Positions 24,708 through 56,900 of a stretch of DNA of 64,000 bases are shown in pieces (the first letter of the stretch is position 1; each line of letters begins with the position of its first letter). This stretch comes from Auanema rhodensis (taxonomy: Eukaryota > Animalia > Nematoda), in assembly GCA_964057225.1 (NCBI GenBank), contig CAXKVF010000094.1, positions 62,001 through 126,000 on the forward strand. The letters run 5' to 3'. A model generated the notes under the pieces. It was not told the origin of the DNA. It made no database searches and saw only the letters and a program-made list of their open reading frames with translations. A program made the position numbers and the translations under genes.

Positions 24708-24712
24708 GTCAA

Positions 24713-24741
24713 GGTTTATTGTTCTTTATCACAGGTTATAA
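24713..24741 (-). other. Conserved 3'-terminal motif/stem-loop of element 1 (TTATAACCTGTGAT-N3-GAACAATAAACC)
   Basis: Identical to 53937-53964 of element 2 apart from the N3 spacer. Can fold with an AACCU loop and contains AATAAA. Confidence 0.75.
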
Positions 24742-24928
24742 CAATAGCAGTTTTGAAAAAAGAAAGTGGATAAAAGAAGTTCCTTACAATATGAACATGA
24801 TTATATAAATTGATTGACATGAAAACATTAATTGTATAGAGATAAGAATAATTATTGAATCAATTATGTCAGTAGAAAATATATATTCTAAACAAGTAAA
24901 TCTATGTGTCATAGTTGTCAACCCATCC

Positions 24929-25112
24929 TTGATAAACAAGGGATTTGTTCAGTTCAAAAAATATGACCTGACCTCATTTTTACTTTTACCAGGTGCGGTG
25001 GAACTTAGAGAAAAAGTCGAGCCCGTTCTGGTAATCAGAGGTAACTATCACCAGATTCGTATGGCTAATGCCTATAGAGTCCATGGTGCAGTAACATTGT
25101 AGCAAAGGGAAC
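24929..25112 (-). other. Conserved structured RNA element in the element 1 3' UTR
   Basis: Colinear conserved blocks with 53568-53755, and stems with compensatory changes between the two elements. Confidence 0.75.
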
Positions 25113-25248
25113 AAGGATGTGGTTGAAAACAAAAAATGATACATGAAGAACATAGTTTGCATAGATATTTGTAGAAGACATATTGAAATAATAATTAGAG
25201 AACAAAATATCATAAGCAGACGAAAAACATTAATAATGAAAGTGCAAG

Positions 25249-28113
25249 CTAATCGCTAAGGAAAAGTTGAAGATGTTTGCGAAATTTGGGAGCTTTTTCA
25301 AGACTCACAATGTTTGATGGTATTGAATTCCAGAGTTCTATGGCTCTGTACTCGATACCTCTTCTAGTTTGAGTCTTCTGGACGTTTGGAAAATCCACAG
25401 TCCATTCGTGACGCCTTAGTGAGTGTGTGAATTTTTTGAGCTTAAAAATTTTCAAAGTATTCTCTGAAATTGGTTGTTTTATTTGGTTAAAATAAAAAAT
25501 TAAATCGAAAACTAGTCTTCTGAAAAATAACTTTTGCCCCCCTAGCAAAGACAGTTGATCTTCATAGCTCATTTTAGATCCTGAGCGCATGAAAACTGCG
25601 CGCAGAAACTTTTTTTGAACATTTTCAATCCGGTCTTTGTCTTTAGAATCTTGTGGGGACCAGATAATAGAAGCATATTCCAATATTGGTCTTATGTAAG
25701 TACAGAATAAGTTGTACATAAGAGAAGGCGATTTAGAGTAGAAACAACGTAAAATTATTTTACATTTTTTTGCTGCTTCACTTGTGATTTTGTTTATGTG
25801 GTTTGAGAAGGAGAGATTGTAATCTGTGAATACTCCAAGATCTTTGTAACAATCTACTGAAGATAGGTTAAAGTTACCAAAAGTGAAAGCGAAGTTTTCA
25901 GGATTACTAATTGGTTTATTTGACATAACCATTATTTTAGATTTAGAGATGTTAACGGCCATCCCGTTTGAGTCGCACCATAATTTTAATTGATCAAGGG
26001 CCCGCTGTAAACTAGTAGGGTTTTTGCTGTAGAGCTTCAAATCATCTGCATAGAGAATGGAGCTGACATCATTAGGAAAATCGGATGTTATGTCATTTAT
26101 GTAAAATAAAAACAACAGAGGACCAAGAACTGTACCTTGTGGTACACCACAAGTGAGTTGTTTAGGTGGTGATAAGGAATTATTGACCATAACTGAAAAA
26201 AACCTACCAGAGATGAAACTTTGGAGAAAGGAATGAAGTGGGCCTTGAATACCAATGGACTTGAGTTTTGAAAAAAGAGTAGAATGTTGTATAAGATCGA
26301 AGGCTTTTGAAAAGTCGATATAAGCTACAAAAACCGGAGTATTACAGTCCAATGATGATCTGAAAGAGATGTGGCTACTGAGAATTGCAGAAACAGTGCT
26401 TCTTTTAGGAAGGAAGGCGTGTTGATTTTGAGATATGGCACCATTGGAAATACCAAAATTAAGAAGTGGAGTACGTATTATACGTTCAAAGATTTTTGAG
26501 AGACTGGAAGTGAGTGAAATTGGGCGGTAGTTACTTGGATTTTCAGGTCGGCCCGTTTTGAAAATGGGACGAATCCAGGCTAACTTCCAATCAGGAGGAC
26601 AAGTTGAGGTAACTAACAAATTGTGAAAAATAAAAGCTAATGGATTAGCCAGAGTAAAAGCACATTGTTTAAGAAAGTAATATGGAATACCATCCGGAGA
26701 TGTGGATACCCTGAGTGGAAGACTATGAAGAGTTTTGTAGACCAATTCAGGTGTTATATCCATGAAATCAATGGTATGACTGGAAGAAGAAGAGACGGAA
26801 ACATGAGTGTTTTCCTGAGAGACAAGAGGAGAAAGAGGAGAAACCGTGAAAACCTCGGCAAATGCTGACACTTTATCAATATCTGAAGAAACTGACACAT
26901 TGTTGACAGTGAGGTTTGGAATGTCAGATGTTTTACCATTTAATCGGGCCTTACAAAAACGATAAAAAAGTTTGGAGTTTTTTAAGGCAGCAATACGCTC
27001 TTCCTCTAAAGCACAATTGATTTTTATTAGCTTGTCCAATTTTACTGAAAGATTTTTACGGCGAATCTCGTCAGATAGATATAAAGAGCAACTTAGCCTG
27101 TTAATTTGATTTCTGAGTTTTGCAATGTTACGATCCGCTTTTTTATTTTTCCTCGGTTGTTTTTTAGGAACATAAATGTCAATGATTGAATGTAGAATAG
27201 AGATAAACTTTGAATACGATTGGAGTGGAGTAAGACCTGAAAGTTCAGAACAGAAGTCGATGTTGACCAGTTGCCTATTGATACGTTCATAATCAGCCAA
27301 AAGGAAATTGCGGTCTGATAACATGGAGAGAGATGTGGGTTCAGCACTATGTAAATCTTGTAGATGAAAATTTTCAGATTTTGAAAGTATATGAAAGGTG
27401 ATGGAAAAATGATCCGAAGCCCCAAGTGGACCAGATCGCTTGATATTGTTGACACAACGAACGTTATTTGTAATTATATAGTCAAGAATATTTTCACCTC
27501 TAGTAGGAAAATTTACTAGCTGGTTTAGACAATTGTGATTGAGAAATTGGAGTAGAATTCTACTAGAAGGAGTAGGTTGAGAACATATACCAAGATCCCA
27601 GTTTATTTTAGGGAAATTAAGATCACCAGTGAGATAGAGAGACCGATTAACTAAATGATTTTGTAGATCACAAAGATAGTTTGAGAAATCTAAGCTAGAT
27701 GATGATGGAGAACGGTAACAAACAGAAAAAATAGAATTGGAAGATGTGATGAGAATATTTATAAACTGTATGGTAGATGAATTACAAGAGCAGGAAAGAA
27801 GACGAAAAGTAATATGTTTTTTGATGAAAAGTAGTACACCACCACCCCGTGATGAACATCTATCAGCCCTGAGGATATTATAGATGTCACCTAACGGAAG
27901 AAGATTAGTGTTAAATTGGGGGTAAAGCCAGGACTCTGATATAGCAATTATATCAGGAGAATTGGGAGAGATGATAACTGGGAGAAGATGAAGTTTGGTG
28001 AGAATTGAGCGTGCATTGTAACAGTGAACAGAAATGTAAGTGTGGTTAGAGACGAGAACAGGTGTTGACGATAACATTGGATCAACGAAAGGACCCGTTA
28101 TTGGACAAAACAA
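25249..28113 (-). CDS. ORF2: apurinic-like endonuclease + reverse transcriptase, intact reading frame
   Basis: EN motifs NARS, IAISESWL, RGGGV, YRSP, GDLNFP, LDY, SDH. RT motifs NYRPISLTS, QHAF, DFSKAFD, GVPQGTVLGPLLF, YADD, YKDLGV. The true N-terminus is uncertain: first ATG at 28077, or a +1 frameshift fusion at ~28088. Confidence 0.97.
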   Translation of the reverse strand: MFCPITGPFVDPMLSSTPVLVSNHTYISVHCYNARSILTKLHLLPVIISPNSPDIIAISESWLYPQFNTNLLPLGDIYNILRADRCSSRGGGVLLFIKKHITFRLLSCSCNSSTIQFINILITSSNSIFSVCYRSPSSSSLDFSNYLCDLQNHLVNRSLYLTGDLNFPKINWDLGICSQPTPSSRILLQFLNHNCLNQLVNFPTRGENILDYIITNNVRCVNNIKRSGPLGASDHFSITFHILSKSENFHLQDLHSAEPTSLSMLSDRNFLLADYERINRQLVNIDFCSELSGLTPLQSYSKFISILHSIIDIYVPKKQPRKNKKADRNIAKLRNQINRLSCSLYLSDEIRRKNLSVKLDKLIKINCALEEERIAALKNSKLFYRFCKARLNGKTSDIPNLTVNNVSVSSDIDKVSAFAEVFTVSPLSPLVSQENTHVSVSSSSSHTIDFMDITPELVYKTLHSLPLRVSTSPDGIPYYFLKQCAFTLANPLAFIFHNLLVTSTCPPDWKLAWIRPIFKTGRPENPSNYRPISLTSSLSKIFERIIRTPLLNFGISNGAISQNQHAFLPKRSTVSAILSSHISFRSSLDCNTPVFVAYIDFSKAFDLIQHSTLFSKLKSIGIQGPLHSFLQSFISGRFFSVMVNNSLSPPKQLTCGVPQGTVLGPLLFLFYINDITSDFPNDVSSILYADDLKLYSKNPTSLQRALDQLKLWCDSNGMAVNISKSKIMVMSNKPISNPENFAFTFGNFNLSSVDCYKDLGVFTDYNLSFSNHINKITSEAAKKCKIILRCFYSKSPSLMYNLFCTYIRPILEYASIIWSPQDSKDKDRIENVQKKFLRAVFMRSGSKMSYEDQLSLLGGQKLFFRRLVFDLIFYFNQIKQPISENTLKIFKLKKFTHSLRRHEWTVDFPNVQKTQTRRGIEYRAIELWNSIPSNIVSLEKAPKFRKHLQLFLSD
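28082..28093 (-). promoter_or_regulatory. Putative +1 ribosomal frameshift site UCC_UUU_CGU_UGA at the ORF1/ORF2 junction
   Basis: In ORF1 frame; ORF2 is open in the +1 frame across it; the same 9 nt are conserved in element 2. Confidence 0.7.
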
Positions 28114-29151
28114 CAGAAGATGATGCAGAAGGACTACTCATAGATCTGGTATTAGGTCCAGTTGGTTTAACTACCCGAGGCGGATTTTTTCTCCTTCTTG
28201 GGCTTATTGAATGATTTTTATCTGTTGGTACAGACACCTGCCTATTGTTAGACCGACTGGGTCTACCAGATTTACGAGGGGGGCTGGAGATGAGAGAAGA
28301 AATTGGTTTTAAGATTGAACTGCAAACGGCATCAACTACTGAAGGGGTTTCAGCTGGTTGAGTGTCCACAGTGACAGAGAGAGTGTTGATGGCATGCGAA
28401 GTAACATTGGTAGATTTACGGGGGACTTCAATAATTTTGAGATCCCGTACAAGAAAAGTCTTTTCAGTGTTATTTTCATTCTTGATTTTTGCTTCTTTTC
28501 GCAAGTTTTTCTCCAGTTCAATTTCGAAGGGGAGATAATCTCGTCGCAAAAACGTTTTTGAGAGGAAATCGAAGCATTTTGATTTATTGAATTTAATAAC
28601 TTGAATAATCTTGTCACGTAAATCTACCGATGGACACGTAATTATGAGAGGGCCAGGGGAATTAGATTTGAGAGTTGAACGTGCAATAGTAATTTGATTG
28701 CTATCGATCAAAGAAGACAAAGTGGTGTCCTGAGATTTCTCGATAATAAGATAATAAGTTTTAGTAACAACAGAGGTTCAGTTGGAAATTCTGTTGACTT
28801 TAATGGCACTCGAAACCAAAGGGCTCTTTTGGCACGGTAGAGGTACTTTGTCTCCTCTGATCGTAATTTTTGAAAATGACATGCTACATTGAGTGGGGAA
28901 AAAGTTGGAACACAGGTAGAATTAGTGTTGCTAGTGGTTTGAAATGAGTTAAAAGTTTGCTCTAACTTATCTAAGCGGGATTTGAAATCCGTTTCGATAG
29001 TTTTTAAGCGAGCCTCGTGCGACGTGATACTAATTTTCATACAGTTAAGCTCATTTTTTATATCATTTGACAATTTTGAAAAAGAGTTCTCGAGAGACTT
29101 TGAGAAATTTTGAAGAGCATTTGTAAGAAAATCATTAGTCACGAAAGACAT
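28082..29151 (-). pseudogene. ORF1 (coiled-coil + RRM/CTD-like + basic Ser/Arg-rich tail), frameshifted by an 8-bp duplication
   Basis: Track ORFs 28708-29205 and 28082-28720 join into one 353-aa frame from ATG 29151 if one copy of ataataag (28743-28750/28751-28758) is removed (...LKLIIEKSQDTTLSSLIDS...). The C-terminal half is homologous to element 2 (YLPFEI-LE-NLR-EAK, VRDL, SSPP-KSGR, SPRRRKNPPR, SFR*). Confidence 0.85.
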
Positions 29152-29366
29152 ATTGAAAAACGAGGGAGTAAAAGAAGGGAAGTAAGAAAGAATAAGAATA
29201 AACACTGAAGTGGAAAATAAAAAAGAAACAAATACGAGAGAAAGGAAATAATGATAAAACTAAAATGCGATACGAAAGAGAGCGCACCTTGACAAAGCCA
29301 GTCCGACGAAAATTTCCTTGACAGAAACGGATCCGGATCCAAACAGCGGAAGTCAACTGACGAGTG
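29152..29366 (-). other. 5' UTR of element 1 (presumed internal promoter region)
   Basis: Lies between the ORF1 ATG and the array, T/C-rich on the sense strand, and begins CACTCGTCAGTTGACTTCC. Promoter function is inferred from LINE biology only. Confidence 0.6.
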
Positions 29367-29971
29367 GGAGGTCAACTGACGAGTGTGGAGGTCAACTGAC
29401 GAGTGAGGAGGTCAACTGACGAGTGGGAGGTCAACTGACGAGTGTGGAGGTCAACTGACGAGTGGGAGGTCAACTGACGAGTGGGGAGGTCAACTGACGA
29501 GTGGGAGGTCAACTGACGAGTGAGGAGGTCAACTGACGAGTGGGAGGTCAACTGACGAGTGAGGAGGTCAACTGACGAGTGAGAGGTCAACTGACGAGTG
29601 GGGAGGTCAACTGACGAGTGGGGAGGTCAACTGACGAGTGGGAGGTCAACTGACGAGTGGGAGGTCAACTGACGAGTGAGGAGGTCAACTGACGAGTGGG
29701 AGGTCAACTGACGAGTGGGAGGTCAACTGACGAGTGTGGAGGTCAACTGACGAGTGGGAGGTCAACTGACGAGTGGGAGGTCAACTGACGAGTGGGAGGT
29801 CAACTGACGAGTGGGAGGTCAACTGACGACTGGGAGGTCAACTGACGAGTGAGGACGTCAACTGACGAGTGAGGAGGTCAACTGACGAGTGAGGAGGTCA
29901 ACTGACGAGTGAGGAGGTCAACTGACGAGTGAGGAGGTCAACTGACGAGTGAGGAGGTCAACTGACGAGTG
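29348..29971. repeat. 19/20-bp tandem array (GGAGGTCAACTGACGAGTG plus 0-1 extra nt), 32 units including the element-proximal one
   Basis: Counted directly: proximal unit ggaAgtcaactgacgagtg at 29348-29366, followed by 31 copies ending at 29971. Confidence 0.97.
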
Positions 29972-30000
29972 TTCACGTAAATTTCAAAATTTTAAATTTC
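29972..30000. other. Junction filler built from pieces of the adjacent satellite target
   Basis: (g)ttcacgtaaatttcaaa + attt + taaatttc precedes the resumed satellite aaattaaagttcacgtaaatttcaaagtc. Confidence 0.85.
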
Positions 30001-50040: not shown

Positions 50041-50209
50041 GAATTATCTTCCTTTTGAAATTATCTTCCTTTTGAATTGATCTTCCTTTTGAAATTATCT
50101 TCCTTTTGAATTGATCTTCCTTTTGAAATTATCTTCCTTTTGAAATTATCTTCCTTTTGAAATTATCTTCCTTTTGAAATTATCTTCCTTTTGAAATTAT
50201 CTTCCTTTT
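50041..50209. repeat. 17-bp tandem array GAAATTATCTTCCTTTT x10, derived from ORF1 coding sequence (YLPFEI)
   Basis: Counted directly. The first unit is 16 nt and units 3 and 5 read gaattgat. The last unit runs in frame into TAT CTT CCT TTT GAA ATT CAA CTG. Confidence 0.97.
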
Positions 50210-50656
50210 GAAATTCAACTGGAAAACAACCTTCGCGAGGAAGCAAAAGAAAAAAACAAAAACAACACTAAGTCTGTCTTTTTGGTACGAGATCTTCGAC
50301 TTATTGAAGTTTCCCGCAATCCAGCCGATCCTCCAAACCCTCAAATAGCTCCCACTTCTTCTTGTAATCAAACTCCTAAAATACCATCTATTCACAACGT
50401 TCCATTACCAACACTCCATTCTCAAACTCTCACATCCCCAACTCTTTTTTCTAGCCCCCCTTGTAAATCTGGTAGAATGAGCCGGTCGAAGGAAAGACAG
50501 AACCGCACGTCAAAAGACAAGCGTTCTTCTGTTAGCCCAAGACGTCGCAAAAATCCACCACGATCCGCAAAATTAACCACAGATCAAATTACCAGATCTG
50601 TTAGCATGAACAATACATCTCAACGTCTCACGTCTGACAAAATGTCCTTTCGTTAA
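50198..50656 (+). pseudogene. C-terminal fragment of ORF1 of element 2
   Basis: YLPFEIQLENNLREEAK...VRDLRLIEV...SSPPCKSGR...SPRRRKNPPR...SFR* aligns with element 1 ORF1. The N-terminal part is lost to 5' truncation. Confidence 0.9.
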
Positions 50657-53477
50657 CACTGTCACGTCTTCAACCCCCCCTGTCTCACATCCTACCAGCC
50701 TCTCAGTTCAGTGTCTTAATGCACGTTCTATTCTTAACAAACTTCATATACTATCCCACGTTATTTCTTTATCCACTCCTGATATAATTGCAATATCAGA
50801 ATCATGGCTTTTTCCTGAGTTCGATACCCACCTACTCCCATGTAAACATACTTACACTATTTTTAGAGCCGATAGGTGTCTCTCACGTGGTGGTGGTGTT
50901 GTCCTCTATATTAAAAGTCATATCAAACCTTTTCTTCTTTCCTGTTCTTCTCCTCAATCTTCTATACAATTCATTAACTTACTCATACCTTCACTTAATG
51001 CTGTTTTCTCACTTTGTTATCGTCCTCCAACAGCTTCTCATTCAGATTTCATTTCGTTTCTTTCTGATCTACGTAAACAAATTTCCAAACGATCGTTCTT
51101 CCTAACGGGCGATCTTAATTTTCCTAAAATCAACTGGGACCTCGGTATTTGCTCTCAACCATGCTCCTCTAGTAGATCTATTCTTCAATTTCTTAACGAT
51201 AGCTGTTCTCATCAGTTGGTAAAGTTCCCTACCAGAGGCAAGAACATTCTTGATTATGTTATCACTGATAACATATCCAGTGTAGGCAACATATCCCGTT
51301 CTTCCCCCCTCGGCTCCTCGGATCACCATTCTGTGGTTTTCCAAATTGTTTCAGACTCTTTTCAGTTAGCTAATACAATCAGCTCTTCTAATACTTTGTC
51401 TCCGGTAGCATTACCTATGTTTTCTGATCGCAATTTTCAAGCTGCTGACTACAATCTCATCAATCATAGACTAGCCAAAATTGATTTCGCTAATCATCTC
51501 TCCGGTCTCACTCCTTTAGATTCTTACTCTAAACTTGTTCACATTCTTCACTCGGTCATTGATAGCTGCGTTCCCAAAAAACAAGAAAGAAGAAAAAAGA
51601 AGATTGACCGAGATATTTTAAAACTCTCATCTCATATAAAAAAACTCAGTTGTTCTTATCATCATCATGATGAATCTCGTCGTAAAAAACTTTCACATTC
51701 TCTTGATAAACTTATCAAGAATAGATTGGCTTTGGAAGAGGAACGTATTGCCAACTATAATAATTCAAAACTTCTTTACCGCTTTTGCAGAACCCGTTTG
51801 GGTGGCAGCACTTCAGATATCCCAAATCTCAAAATAGATAATGATTCTGTTTCGTCTGATTCTGACAAAGCTTCTATCTTTGCTACTACCTTCTCTGTTC
51901 GCCCCCTTCCTATCTCTCTACCACATGCTCCTCATTCCTTTTCTTCTACTATTATCGACTTTATTGATGTCTCCCCTCTCAACGTTCACAAAATTCTCTG
52001 TCAGTTACCTCTTCGGGTATCAACATCCCCAGACGGAATCCCTTATTTCTTCCTAAAAAATTGTGCTTCTACTCTCTCTCAGCCTCTGGCCTTTGTTTTC
52101 CACAATCTACTTGTTTCCTCCTCTTGCCCTCCTGACTGGAAAACAGCTTGGATTCGTCCCGTTCATAAATCAGGACTTTCTTCTAACCCGGCTAATTATC
52201 GTCCTATTTCTCTCACATCCAGTCTATCTAAAGTTTTTGAACGTCTCCTTCGTTCACCTCTTCTTGACTTTGGTATTTCCTCCGGCTTTATTTCTCCTAA
52301 TCAGTTTGCTTTTCTTCCAAAACGCAATACTGTATCAGCAATTCTTAGTAGTCATGTTCTCTGGAGATCTGCTGTAGACAAGAAAAAACCTGTTTATGTT
52401 GCCTTTATTGACTTTTCTAAGGTTTTTGATCTCATAAATCATTCCGTTCTGTTAGCTAAATTAAAATCAATTGGCATTGCCGGCTGTATTCTCACTTTTC
52501 TCAAAAACTTCATTACTAATAGATCTTTCTCTGTATTAGTTAATTACTCTCTATCCGTCACAAATTCTTTGCCCTGTGGAGTTCCACAGGGGACAGTACT
52601 GGGTCCTCTTCTTTTTTTATTTTATATAAATGATATTACATCAAATTTACCTGATGATGTACATCCAACTCTTTATGCAGACGATCTTAAACTAAGCAGC
52701 ACAAATCCGGTAAGTTTACAACTAGCTTTGAATATTCTCAAAAACTGGTGTCTATCTAACGGTATGAAAGTTAATACTTCCAAATCCAAAGTTATGATTA
52801 TATCGAGTACCACTACACCAAGAACAAACACAATTTTCAAATTTGGAGACATTTCTTTAGCTACAGTATCATCATATAAAGATCTAGGTGTGTGTACAGA
52901 CTATAATCTCTCTTTTAACAGTCATATAGACAGAATTTCTAACATTGCTGCTCACAAATGTCGTGTTATTTTGCGTTGTTTTTACTCAAGATCACCAACT
53001 TTGATGTTCAAACTTTTTTGCTGCTATATCCGACCAATTTTAGAATATGCTTCAGTTGTATGGTCTCCTCAGAATAACAAAGATAAAGCGCGCATTGAGT
53101 CTGTCCAAAAAAAGTTTTTAAACGCTATTTTTAAGAGAGCCGAAATAGCTTTGGATTACAAGAACCAGCTATTGTTTCTTGGAGCCGAGGAGCTAACGTT
53201 TAGAAGACTACTAATTGATCTCGTTTTTTATCATAATCAGATTACTAAAAATGTTCCAGAAAACAACCTTAACTTTTTTACTACCAAGCACTATGCTCAT
53301 TCACTACGTAGACATCTATGGAATGTTGAATACCCTGATCTTTGGAAGAGCGAAACAAGAACTGGAATAGAATACAGAGCTATTCAAATCTGGAACACAC
53401 TCCCTGAAAACATCGTTCAACTAAGAAACACTTCCAGCTTCAGAAAACATCTTTCTATTAATCTTAACAATATTTAA
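50610..53477 (+). CDS. ORF2 of element 2: APE endonuclease + reverse transcriptase (stop-to-stop frame; the track start at 51216 is an internal TTG)
   Basis: Manual translation upstream of 51216 is stop-free back to TGA 50607-50609 and gives CLNARSIL...IIAISESWL...RGGGV...CYRPP...GDLNFP. RT motifs GVPQGTVLGPLLF and YADD are present. Confidence 0.95.
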   Translation, partial: TIHLNVSRLTKCPFVNTVTSSTPPVSHPTSLSVQCLNARSILNKLHILSHVISLSTPDIIAISESWLFPEFDTHLLPCKHTYTIFRADRCLSRGGGVVLYIKSHIKPFLLSCSSPQSSIQFINLLIPSLNAVFSLCYRPPTASHSDFISFLSDLRKQISKRSFFLTGDLNFPKINWDLGICSQPCSSSRSILQFLNDSCSHQLVKFPTRGKNILDYVITDNISSVGNISRSSPLGSSDHHSVVFQIVSDSFQLANTISSSNTLSPVALPMFSDRNFQAADYNLINHRLAKIDFANHLSGLTPLDSYSKLVHILHSVIDSCVPKKQERRKKKIDRDILKLSSHIKKLSCSYHHHDESRRKKLSHSLDKLIKNRLALEEERIANYNNSKLLYRFCRTRLGGSTSDIPNLKIDNDSVSSDSDKASIFATTFSVRPLPISLPHAPHSFSSTIIDFIDVSPLNVHKILCQLPLRVSTSPDGIPYFFLKNCASTLSQPLAFVFHNLLVSSSCPPDWKTAWIRPVHKSGLSSNPANYRPISLTSSLSKVFERLLRSPLLDFGISSGFISPNQFAFLPKRNTVSAILSSHVLWRSAVDKKKPVYVAFIDFSKVFDLINHSVLLAKLKSIGIAGCILTFLKNFITNRSFSVLVNYSLSVTNSLPCGVPQGTVLGPLLFLFYINDITSNLPDDVHPTLYADDLKLSSTNPVSLQLALNILKNWCLSNGMKVNTSKSKVMIISSTTTPRTNTIFKFGDISLATVSSYKDLGVCTDYNLSFNSHIDRISNIAAHKCRVILRCFYSRSPTLMFKLFCCYIRPILEYASVVWSPQNNKDKARIESVQKKFLNAIFKRAEIALDYKNQLLFLGAEELTFRRLLIDLVFYHNQITKNVPENNLNFFTTKHYAHSLRRHLWNVEYPDLWKSETRTGIEYRAIQIWNTLPENIVQLRNTSSFRKHLSINLNNI
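50645..50656 (+). promoter_or_regulatory. Putative +1 ribosomal frameshift site UCC_UUU_CGU_UAA
   Basis: In ORF1 frame; ORF2 is open in the +1 frame from 50610 and has no ATG before the end of the EN domain. Confidence 0.7.
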
Positions 53478-53567
53478 CCTTTCTCTGTTATTGTAACTTG
53501 AAATCTTGTTTATGTATATTCTTCTATTTACAAGCATTTAAGCCTCAAGCTATGTTAAAGTTAGACA

Positions 53568-53755
53568 GTTCCCTAGTTTACCTCTGAGACCTGTTACTAC
53601 GTATTTTATCCTATAGACATTAGTCATACGGATAGAACGATAGTTACCTCTTGCTGTCAGAACGGGCTTGACTCACATCAAGAGTTCCACCGTACCTGTC
53701 AGAATACTATAGAGGTCAGTGATCTACACTGAACAAATCAACTCTTCTTTATCAA
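53568..53755 (+). other. Conserved structured RNA element in the element 2 3' UTR
   Basis: Homologous to 24929-25112 (minus), with covarying stems. Confidence 0.75.
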
Positions 53756-53936
53756 ACTAGAACTGTTTCGAAACCTTAACAAACAAGTAGTGCTGCTCGC
53801 TATCATTGTAAAAGAAAATATGCTGAACCTGTTTCTTGTACATATATTTTTTTAGTCAATTATTACAAGTATGTTTGTATTGTAAGGTTCTTTTGAATAT
53901 CTGCAATTTTCCCGATTTATTAACCTTGTTTTCCGA

Positions 53937-53964
53937 TTATAACCTGTGATTCGAACAATAAACC
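53937..53964 (+). other. Conserved 3'-terminal motif/stem-loop of element 2
   Basis: TTATAACCTGTGATTCGAACAATAAACC, matching the element 1 3' end. Confidence 0.75.
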
Positions 53965-53971
53965 CGTTCAA

Positions 53972-56900
53972 ACGTGTACATTTAATTAGCATAAATTAAA
54001 GTTCACGTAAATTTCAAAGTCATGGTTACCATGAACCAATATCAATAAAAATTTGTTTTTAGACTAATATGGACATGGGGAATCTAATTTTGAAAACCGC
54101 ATCTCTTTATCTTTCACGTGAAGCGAGTTACATACCAAGTGCACATCACGTGTACATTTAATTAGCATAAATTAAAGTTCACGTAAAATTCAAAGTCATG
54201 GTTACCATGCACCAATATCAATAAAAATTTGTTTTTAGACTAATATGGACATTGGGAATCTAATTTTGAAAACCGCATCTCTTTATCTTTTACGTGAAGC
54301 GAGTTACATACCAAGTGCACATCACGTGTACATTTAATTAGCATAAATTAAAGTTCACGTAAATTTCAAAGTCATGGTTACCATGCACCAATATCATTAA
54401 AAATTTGTTTTTAGACTAATATGGACATGGGGAATCTAATTTTGAAAACCGCATCTCTTTATCTTTCACGTGAAGCGAGTTACATACCAAGTGCACATCA
54501 CGTGTACATTTAATTAGCATAAATTAAAGTTCACGTAAATTTCAAAGTCATGGTTACCATGAACCAATATCAATAAAAATTTGTTTTTAGACTAATATGG
54601 ACATGGGGAATCTAATTTTGAAAACCGCATCTCTTTATCTTTCACGTGAAGCGAGTTACATACCAAGTGCACATCACGTGTACATTTAATTAGCATAAAT
54701 TAAAGTTCACGTAAATTTCAAAGTCGTGGTTACCATGCACCAATATCAATAAAAATTCGTTTTTAGACTAATATGGACATGGGGAATCTAATTTTGAAAA
54801 CCGCATCTCTTTATCTTTCACGTGAAGCGAGTTACATACCAAGTGCACATCACGTGTACATTTAATTAGCATAAATTAAAGTTCACGTAAATTTCAAAGT
54901 CATGGTTACCATGAACCAATATCAATTAAAATTTGTTTTTAGACTAATATGGACATGGGGAATCTAATTTTGAAAACCGTATCTCTTTATCTTTCACGTG
55001 AAGCGAGTTACATACCAAGTGCACATCACGTGTACATTTAATTAGCATAAATTAAAGTTCACGTAAATTTCAAAGTCATGGTTACCATGAACCAATATCA
55101 ATAAAAATTTGTTTTTAGACTAATATGGACATGGGCAATCTAATTTTGAAAACCGCATCTCTTTATCTTTCACGTGAAGCGAGTTACATACCAAGTGCAC
55201 ATCACGTGTACATTTAATTAGCATAAATTAAAGTTCACGTAAATTTCAAAGTCATGGTTACCATGCACCAATATCAATAAAAATTTGTTTTTAGACTAAT
55301 ATGGACATAGGGAATCTAATTTTGAAAACCGCATCTCTTCATCTTTCACGTGAAGCGAGTTACATACCAAGTGCACATCACGTCTAAATTTAATTAGCAT
55401 AAATTAAAGTTCACGAAAATTTCAAAGTCATGGTTACCATGAACCAATATCAATAAAAATTTGTTTTTAGACTAATATGGACATGGGCAATCTAATTTTG
55501 AAAACCGCATCTCTTTATCTTTCACGTGAAGCGAGTTACATACCAAGTGCACATCACGTGTACATTTAATTAGCATAAATTAAAGTTCACGTAAATTTCA
55601 AAGTCATGGTTACCATGCACCAATATCAATAAAAATTTGTTTTTAGACTAATATGGACATGGGGAATCTAATTTTGAAAACCGCATCTCTTCATCTTTCA
55701 CGTGAAGCGAGTTACATACCAAGTGCACATCACGTGTACATTTAATTAGCATAAATTAAAGTTCACGTAAATTTCAAAGTCATGGTTACCATGAACCAAT
55801 ATCAATAAAAATTTGTTTTTAGACTAATATGGACATGGGGAATCTCATTTTAAAAACCGCATCTCTTTATCTTTCACGTGAAGCGAGTTACATACCAAGT
55901 GCACATCACGTGTACATTTAATTAGCATAAATTAAAGTTCACGTAAATTTCAAAGTCATGGTTACCATGCACCAATATCAATAAAAATTTGTTTTTAGAC
56001 TAATATGGACATGGGGAATCTAATTTTGAAAACCGCATCTCTTTATCTTTCACGTGAAGCGAGTTACATACCAAGTGCACCTCACGTGTACATTTAATTA
56101 GCATAAATCAAAGTTCACGTAAATTTCAAAGTCATGGTTACCATGCACCAATATCAATAAAAATTTGTTTTTAGACTAATATGGACATGGGGAATCTAAT
56201 TTTGAAAACCGCATCTCTTTATCTTTCACGTGAAGCGAGTTACATACCAAGTGCACATCACGTGTACATTTAATTAGCATAAATTAAAGTTCACGTAAAT
56301 TTCAAAGTCATGGTTACCATGAACCAATATCAATAAAAATTTGTTTTTAGACAAATATGGACATGGGGAATCTAATTTTGAAAACCGCATCTCTTTATCT
56401 TTCACGTGAAGCGAGTTACATACCAAGTGCACATCACGTGTACATTTAATTAGCATAAATTAAAGTTCACGTAAATTTCAAAGTCATGGTTACCATGCAC
56501 CAATATCAATAAAAATTTGTTTTTAGACTAATATGGACATGGGGAATCTAATTTTGAAAACCGCATCTCTTTATCTTTCACGTGAAGCGAGTTACATACC
56601 AAGTGCACATCACGTGTACATTTAATTAGCATAAATTAAAGTTCACGTAAATTTCAAAGTCATGGTTACCATGCACCAATATCAATAAAAATTTGTTTTT
56701 AGACTAATATGGACATGGGGAATCTAATTTTGAAAACCGCATCTCTTCATCTTTCACGTGAAGCGAGTTACATACCAAGTGCACATCAAGTGTACATTTA
56801 ATTAGCATAAATTAAAGTTCACGTAAATTTCAAAGTCATGGTTACCATGCACCAATATCAATAAAAATTTGTTTTTAGACTAATATGGACATGGGGAATC

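Follow-up and report, generated by a model that had tools for sequence, protein, structure and literature searches.

The window, a 64-kb stretch of Auanema rhodensis DNA (positions 1-64000), is a satellite array (unstranded) in which two LINEs are inserted. The satellite consists of about 360 copies of a 176-bp unit, with 32% G+C and 86% matched. Element 1 lies on the minus strand (24708-29972, approximate extent) and carries a 5' tandem array, a 5' UTR, ORF1, ORF2 and a 3' UTR. Element 2 lies on the plus strand (50042-53972, also approximate) and is a 5'-truncated copy with a tandem array at the truncation, the tail of ORF1, ORF2 and a 3' UTR of about 490 nt. The same CACGTGTACATT segment of the satellite unit adjoins both LINEs, in opposite orientations, and it is possible that this shared insertion neighbourhood reflects a target preference of both.

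The 5' array of element 1 has 32 copies of a 19-20-nt unit ahead of the 5' UTR (29352-29971, minus strand), and that of element 2 has ten copies of a 17-nt unit that copies ORF1 sequence at the truncation point (50042-50215, plus strand). These arrays suggest either repeated template slippage during 5' integration or later amplification within the satellite. At the other end, the two 3' UTRs have a common block that is about 70% identical (53605-53740, plus strand; 24950-25085, minus strand) and is predicted to fold as two stems, with 4 of the 27 predicted pairs changed on both sides in a comparison of just two sequences. Rfam gave no match for the 3' UTR; the predicted two-stem block is likely to be a recognition structure for the reverse transcriptase (RT). 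A shared terminal motif, TTATAACCTGTGAT...AACAATAAAC, closes both elements.

Both ORF2s have Pfam matches to Exo_endo_phos, Exo_endo_phos_2 and RVT_1, giving the order endonuclease (APE) then RT of an APE-type LINE, and the best match among solved structures is L1 ORF2p (E 4e-17). Neither element has LTRs, element 2 starts inside ORF1 as expected of 5' truncation, and the 3' end is common to both. At 571 of 915 aligned residues the two ORF2 proteins agree (62% identity), and their synonymous sites are close to saturation. In element 2 the ORF2 frame (50610-53477, plus strand) has 955 open codons, with endonuclease motifs NARS (50718), GDLN (51108) and SDH (51318) and the RT motif YADD (52674); in element 1 it has 962 (25249-28137, minus strand). 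Both elements are termed CR1-like on architecture and motifs. Nematode CR1 elements include Sam and Frodo.

ORF1 of element 1 (28082-29151, minus strand) has about 356 codons from an ATG at 29151, with one frame change near 28777. Just within the RRM (28708-28790, minus strand), reading passes to the -1 frame at a place where the close relatives P0005-P0007 described below are continuous, and the change is likely to be damage or an assembly error of this copy. An in-frame TTT CGA in this ORF1 was rejected as the cause, since the break goes in the other direction. Element 2 retains only the C-terminal 153 codons of ORF1 (50195-50656, plus strand), namely the end of the CTD and a Ser/Pro/Arg-rich tail. 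A structure model of the relative P0006 has an N-terminal helix (residues 3-66), an RRM-like core, a CTD and a disordered tail, and its top Foldseek matches are human L1 ORF1p (E 2.7e-5). Element 1 ORF1 would by inference from this relative comprise a coiled coil, an RRM and a CTD, an assignment that runs through the P0006 model, with the window's own ORF1 entering only by alignment. This is the type II (L1-like) ORF1 that is found in CR1-group LINEs (PMC4120745).

The sequence TCC TTT CGT occurs exactly twice in the window, at 50645-50653 (plus strand) and 28093-28085 (minus strand). The count alone is unremarkable, with 0.33 matches expected and at least two found in 6 of 100 shuffles. The placement is specific: both matches are the final three codons of ORF1, followed by TAA in element 2 (50645-50656) and TGA in element 1 (28082-28093), so that ORF1 of element 2 ends Ser-Phe-Arg-stop. 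ORF2 is open across the site in the +1 frame in both elements, reading Pro-Phe-Val-Asn in element 2 and Pro-Phe-Val-Asp in element 1, and continues from the Val for 941 and 945 codons, respectively. Both sites have the zero-frame form UCC_UUU_CGN with the CC_UUU_C core, as exact UCC UUU CGU, and are candidate shift sites. Three further in-frame TTT CGN pairs were found within ORFs, none of them with TCC. The preliminary description had given these ORF1 ends, the +1 phase of ORF2 and the identity of UCC_UUU_CGU with the +1 site of influenza PA-X, and each of these points was borne out, the last by PMC3498833.

The same description placed the first in-frame ATG of element 2 at 51417, after the endonuclease, and this too is correct: the Pfam endonuclease match covers residues 44-239, and the ATG is codon 270, past all catalytic motifs. 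The wider claim that ORF2 lacks an AUG stands for element 2 and for the sister lineage described below, but not for element 1, which has an in-frame ATG at 28077-28075, 4 nt past the ORF1 stop (TGA TCCA ATG). Near-cognate codons are present in all three. An AAA ATG just upstream of the motif in element 2 was discounted as an entry to ORF2; it belongs to the ORF1 frame, and element 1 does not have it. No 3' stimulatory structure was detected downstream of the motif, where folds are no better than those of shuffled sequences (z -0.41 and +1.12), and upstream only the element 1 fold beats its shuffles (5/200). A variable linker with an open ORF2 frame (50657-50717, plus strand) separates the ORF1 stop from the endonuclease; element 1 and the sister lineage each have 3 nt more here.

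The motif has the same codons in two diverged elements. Only 45 of 116 fourfold sites in ORF2 are identical between the elements, and exact codon identity is therefore not inherited by default. At conserved ORF2 residues the same codon is kept for Ser in 23 of 69 cases, for Phe in 20 of 39 and for Arg in 15 of 36, and these rates give a chance of about 0.07 for three matching codons. TCC makes up 16% of the Ser codons in these elements; for two ORF1s that both encode Ser-Phe-Arg here, the exact nonamer TCC TTT CGT would be expected in the pair with a chance of about 0.002. The codons are identical in all three lineages in which they can be read (element 1, element 2 and the sister), two of which are about 87% alike, the three further relatives being known as protein only. 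The motif was earlier said to be identical while its flanks had diverged. It does lie in an identity run of 11 nt. The tail and linker (369 columns, 55% identical), however, hold six runs of at least 8 nt, the longest being 14 nt, so that such identity is not unique to the motif and its run is not the longest.

A sister lineage of element 2 was recovered from sequencing runs. Nine of the 13 runs listed contain at least half of element 2's words, and four of the nine were compared; no RNA runs were among the listed runs matching these words. Each of the four runs has one near-identical contig and one sister contig that differs at 18 of 158 letters (13 of 112 in the shorter contig of run X7). 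All four sister contigs have no listed change in 50631-50658 (for run X2, 13 of the 18 differences are listed, those near the end lying outside the list), although at the sister's divergence an unchanged 12-nt stretch has, by our own arithmetic, a chance of about 0.2 and is weak alone. The listed differences create no new in-frame ATG and keep the +1 phase, and the sister, like element 2, has no ATG there. The in-frame 3-nt linker insertion is present in three of the four runs, and the contig of the fourth ends before it. Of the 27 variant rows in the endonuclease, 19 are third-position changes (p=9e-5; taken from 40 of 173 difference rows, on contigs not all linked to the junction), and this concentration points to an endonuclease that is under selection with no preceding AUG.

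Upstream of the motif, where the two ORFs overlap, the sister differs from element 2 in a way that leans toward the ORF2 frame. Of the four changed codons, three are synonymous when read in the ORF2 frame and none when read in the ORF1 frame; 4 of 5 changes are at ORF2 third positions (p=0.045, uncorrected). One of the codons involved, at 50613-50615 (plus strand), is a candidate near-cognate start: element 2 has ATA here, the sister has CTG, and a CTG of element 1 aligns with it. With five changes and an uncertain alignment the pattern may be noise, or a weak hint of ORF2-frame constraint upstream of the motif. A pure frameshift model does not predict the lean, which would favour reinitiation at a near-cognate codon.

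Relatives of ORF1 were sought with 120 residues of the ORF1 domain, leaving out the tail, against 1.84 billion representatives. Three of the nine matches have E<=1e-10 and are 39-40% identical, and all three are from Auanema sp. JU1783 (P0005-P0007; CAI4220742.1, CAI4221027.1 and CAI4220829.1). These proteins end TSFRK, NSFR and STFRK, that is, [S/T]FR(K) in 3/3, in tails that are 20-24% identical to those of the window and in which Phe is less than 1% of residues. The background chance of [ST]FR within the last two registers is about 3e-4 per protein. The three come from one genome and their tails are related (32-33% identical to one another), so they perhaps amount to one independent observation. 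The variation at their ends fits a nucleotide motif: Ser and Thr both have NCC codons, so that the CC_UUU_C core could stay, and NAA/NGA would account for either Lys or a stop as the codon that follows Arg. If nothing but the +1 peptide were constrained, [ST]FR would be expected 11% of the time per lineage.

Outside this lineage the motif was not seen in the relatives compared. Five more distant ORF1 matches (P0009-P0013, 29-35% identical) lack an [S/T]FR(K) ending, though the ends of P0011 and P0013 say little, since both models are partial and that of P0013 is fused. P0008, a protein of 969 aa with ten repeats, was judged a repeat artefact and left uncounted. A metagenome scan gave 26 distant loci (23-45% identity), and TTTCG was at the junction in 0 of 23 of them and in 0 of 20 in a further check. 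CCTTTC in loci L005 and L016 was set aside because it sits within the start of the endonuclease and not at the ORF1 end, and the one viral match to the motif-plus-endonuclease pattern (L027) was put down to chance (tblastn E 0.4). No close-relative DNA was found in the prokaryote genomes or viral contigs searched. A word-indexed protein search with the ORF1 part gave nothing among 643 candidates; with the endonuclease region it gave four distant proteins (30-34% identical) that are uninformative on the junction. An ORF1 profile search recovered only the three known relatives among 7,920 candidates, and an Atlas search named no useful family.

Four of the distant CR1-like loci (L001:2058-2180, L012:3363-3500, L015:3390-3530 and L020:1513-1650) have no AUG before the endonuclease and an ORF2 that overlaps ORF1 in the -1 phase. 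A common GGGCTRTAAGGG-like stretch is present at the overlap in these loci and is a candidate for a separate recoding site. The AUG-less ORF2s of these four, together with the lack of the motif in P0009-P0013 and in the distant loci, indicate from the sequences compared that the motif marks one lineage and that a missing AUG is by itself common in such elements.

The junction motif is thus a real, lineage-conserved feature on the sequence evidence, and its most probable role is that of a PA-X-type +1 shift site for the LINE. The motif, its place, the +1 phase and an intact, selected endonuclease with no prior AUG in element 2 are directly supported. Since each element has an exact PA-X site at the one position from which a +1 shift would connect ORF1 to ORF2, +1 slippage at UCC UUU CGU probably makes a low-level ORF1p-ORF2p fusion; the slippage, its rate and the fusion protein are what we infer from these features. 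Most ribosomes would release ORF1p at the stop directly after the motif, and about 1% would shift +1, translating a linker of about 20 residues and then the endonuclease. The resulting fusion would be about 1,300 residues long and joined at SF|V (predicted MSF|VNTVTSS in element 2 and NGSF|VDPMLSS in element 1), and the shift would set a high ORF1p:ORF2p ratio, as in Gag/Gag-Pol. In element 1 the AUG may simply encode a Met of the linker, or it may offer a second way into ORF2. More speculatively, the fusion could enter ORF1p trimers by way of its coiled coil and remain with the RNA that encoded it. The ORF1-ORF2 fusion by +1 shift put forward in the preliminary description thus gains from the ends of the three close relatives and from the motif, phase and lack of an ATG kept in the sister, but element 1's own ATG and the synonymous lean upstream count against it. 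A broader proposal is that the whole nematode CR1-like lineage makes its RT only as a covalent ORF1p-ORF2p fusion through a PA-X-type +1 shift, as a Gag-Pol strategy, with the fused coiled coil placing the enzyme in an RNP on its own RNA and so explaining cis preference. This is distinctly more tentative, and we put its chances a little below even.

The rival with the most in its favour, though we consider it unlikely, is termination-reinitiation, in which ORF2 would restart near the ORF1 stop, at the AUG in element 1 and in element 2 at a near-cognate ATA/CTG about 40 nt upstream or an ACG downstream. ORF2p would then be a free protein and the motif would reflect dual coding or termination context. 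Reinitiation has been reported for SART1 and proposed for L1, with non-AUG codons tolerated (PMC5972666, PMC3894237). It would suit the TGA TCCA ATG of element 1, the ORF2-frame lean in the overlap with a near-cognate codon at an aligned place in three lineages, and the four distant loci that have AUG-less ORF2s in the -1 phase and lack the motif. Reinitiation does not, however, predict the exact PA-X nonamer, nor Phe and Arg in 5/5 ORF1 ends, for which the +1 peptide alone would give 0.11 per lineage, and the element 1 AUG is not kept in element 2 or the sister. The ORF2-frame overlap peptides of the two elements are also unlike each other except for PFV, although the overlap is uncertainly aligned. 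The UGGGA core of a TURBS is absent from the 150 nt before both ORF1 stops, and neither element has the overlapping UAAUG stop-start of SART1-type coupling or a downstream fold better than shuffles.

Selection on the ORF1 protein itself would give a different account of the conserved end, with [S/T]FR(K) as a C-terminal motif of ORF1p, perhaps a short binding motif at the end of the disordered tail, the PA-X codons coincidental and ORF2 reached in some other way. The tail does keep other short motifs (KSGR, SPRRRKNPPR and RSxS) that likewise give exact nucleotide runs, and what the three relatives contribute is all at the protein level; in the P0006 model the last four residues have pLDDT <50, which neither shows nor excludes a binding motif. 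This account, however, needs the uncommon TCC twice, at the chance of about 0.002 given above for the exact nonamer in both; the terminal residue varies between Arg and Lys, and the AUG-less yet selected endonuclease of element 2 is left unexplained. We regard it as improbable, more so than reinitiation. Chance, whereby shared ancestry and base composition left a functionless look-alike of the PA-X site, could draw on the shuffles and on the other TTT CGN pairs inside ORFs. It is very improbable given that both exact matches are the last codons of ORF1 and that all three close relatives, found with the tail left out, end in [S/T]FR.

The preferred reading, +1 slippage at the motif, has its closest parallel in influenza A PA-X. 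At UCC_UUU_CGU of influenza A a +1 shift was established by mass spectrometry, with the join SF|V and an efficiency of about 0.7-1.3%, and the favoured mechanism is slippage of tRNA-Phe from UUU to UUC (PMC3498833). The site here is identical, the predicted join is SF|V as in GLWDSFVSPR, there is no 3' stimulator, none being known for PA-X either, and a rate of about 1% would suit a polymerase product. In contrast to PA-X, the zero-frame stop here comes at once, the +1 frame encodes an essential enzyme and the carrier is a LINE. Similar +1 sites have been predicted to serve polymerase expression in other viruses (PMC3498833), and a preprint on PLEKHM2 reports that UCC_UUU_CGG shifts at about 1% in human cells and that the core CC_UUU_C is conserved. 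The other UUU_CGN sites have the same core, and in amalgaviruses and the bee viruses the shift is predicted to give the polymerase; their carriers, however, are RNA viruses or cellular genes and not retrotransposons. In nematodes related to C. elegans, UUU-UGA is found at the antizyme +1 site (PMC1874602). If the reading is correct, retrotransposons and nematode ribosomes would join RNA viruses and one proven human gene as settings for the PA-X class of +1 sites. Annotators would also have a reason why such elements look AUG-less, and the natural variants (Ser or Thr before Phe, and Lys or a stop following Arg) would be material for work on the E-site and A-site rules of PA-X.

Among LINEs, the CR1-group elements with type II ORF1 (PMC4120745) have the same ORF1 coiled coil, RRM and CTD and the same APE and RT in ORF2, but of the relatives compared it is the present lineage to which TCC TTT CGT is limited. 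The open-access literature searched yielded no description of a LINE that carries it; supplements, repeat-library notes and subscription papers may hold a mention. A +1 frameshift or reinitiation has been suggested for Paramecium LINE groups 1 and 2, in which ORF2 is likewise in another frame (PMC5405496), and a -1 frameshift for Dictyostelium TRE5-A/TRE3-A, opposite to the +1 direction here (PMC5911963). These LINEs belong to other clades and hosts, and no shift motif is named in the passages that discuss their frames (PMC5405496, PMC5911963). How LINE ORF2 is translated is an open question (PMC3894237), and the worked cases point to reinitiation and free ORF2p. A nine-base slippery site would offer a different answer, an ORF1p-ORF2p fusion. 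SART1 (UAAUG) and mammalian L1 resemble the present elements in their bicistronic ORF1-ORF2 RNA, low ORF2 output and tolerance of a missing AUG (PMC5972666, PMC3894237, PMC5009743), but they make free ORF2p with no slippery motif, and L1 has a 63-nt spacer in place of the overlap.
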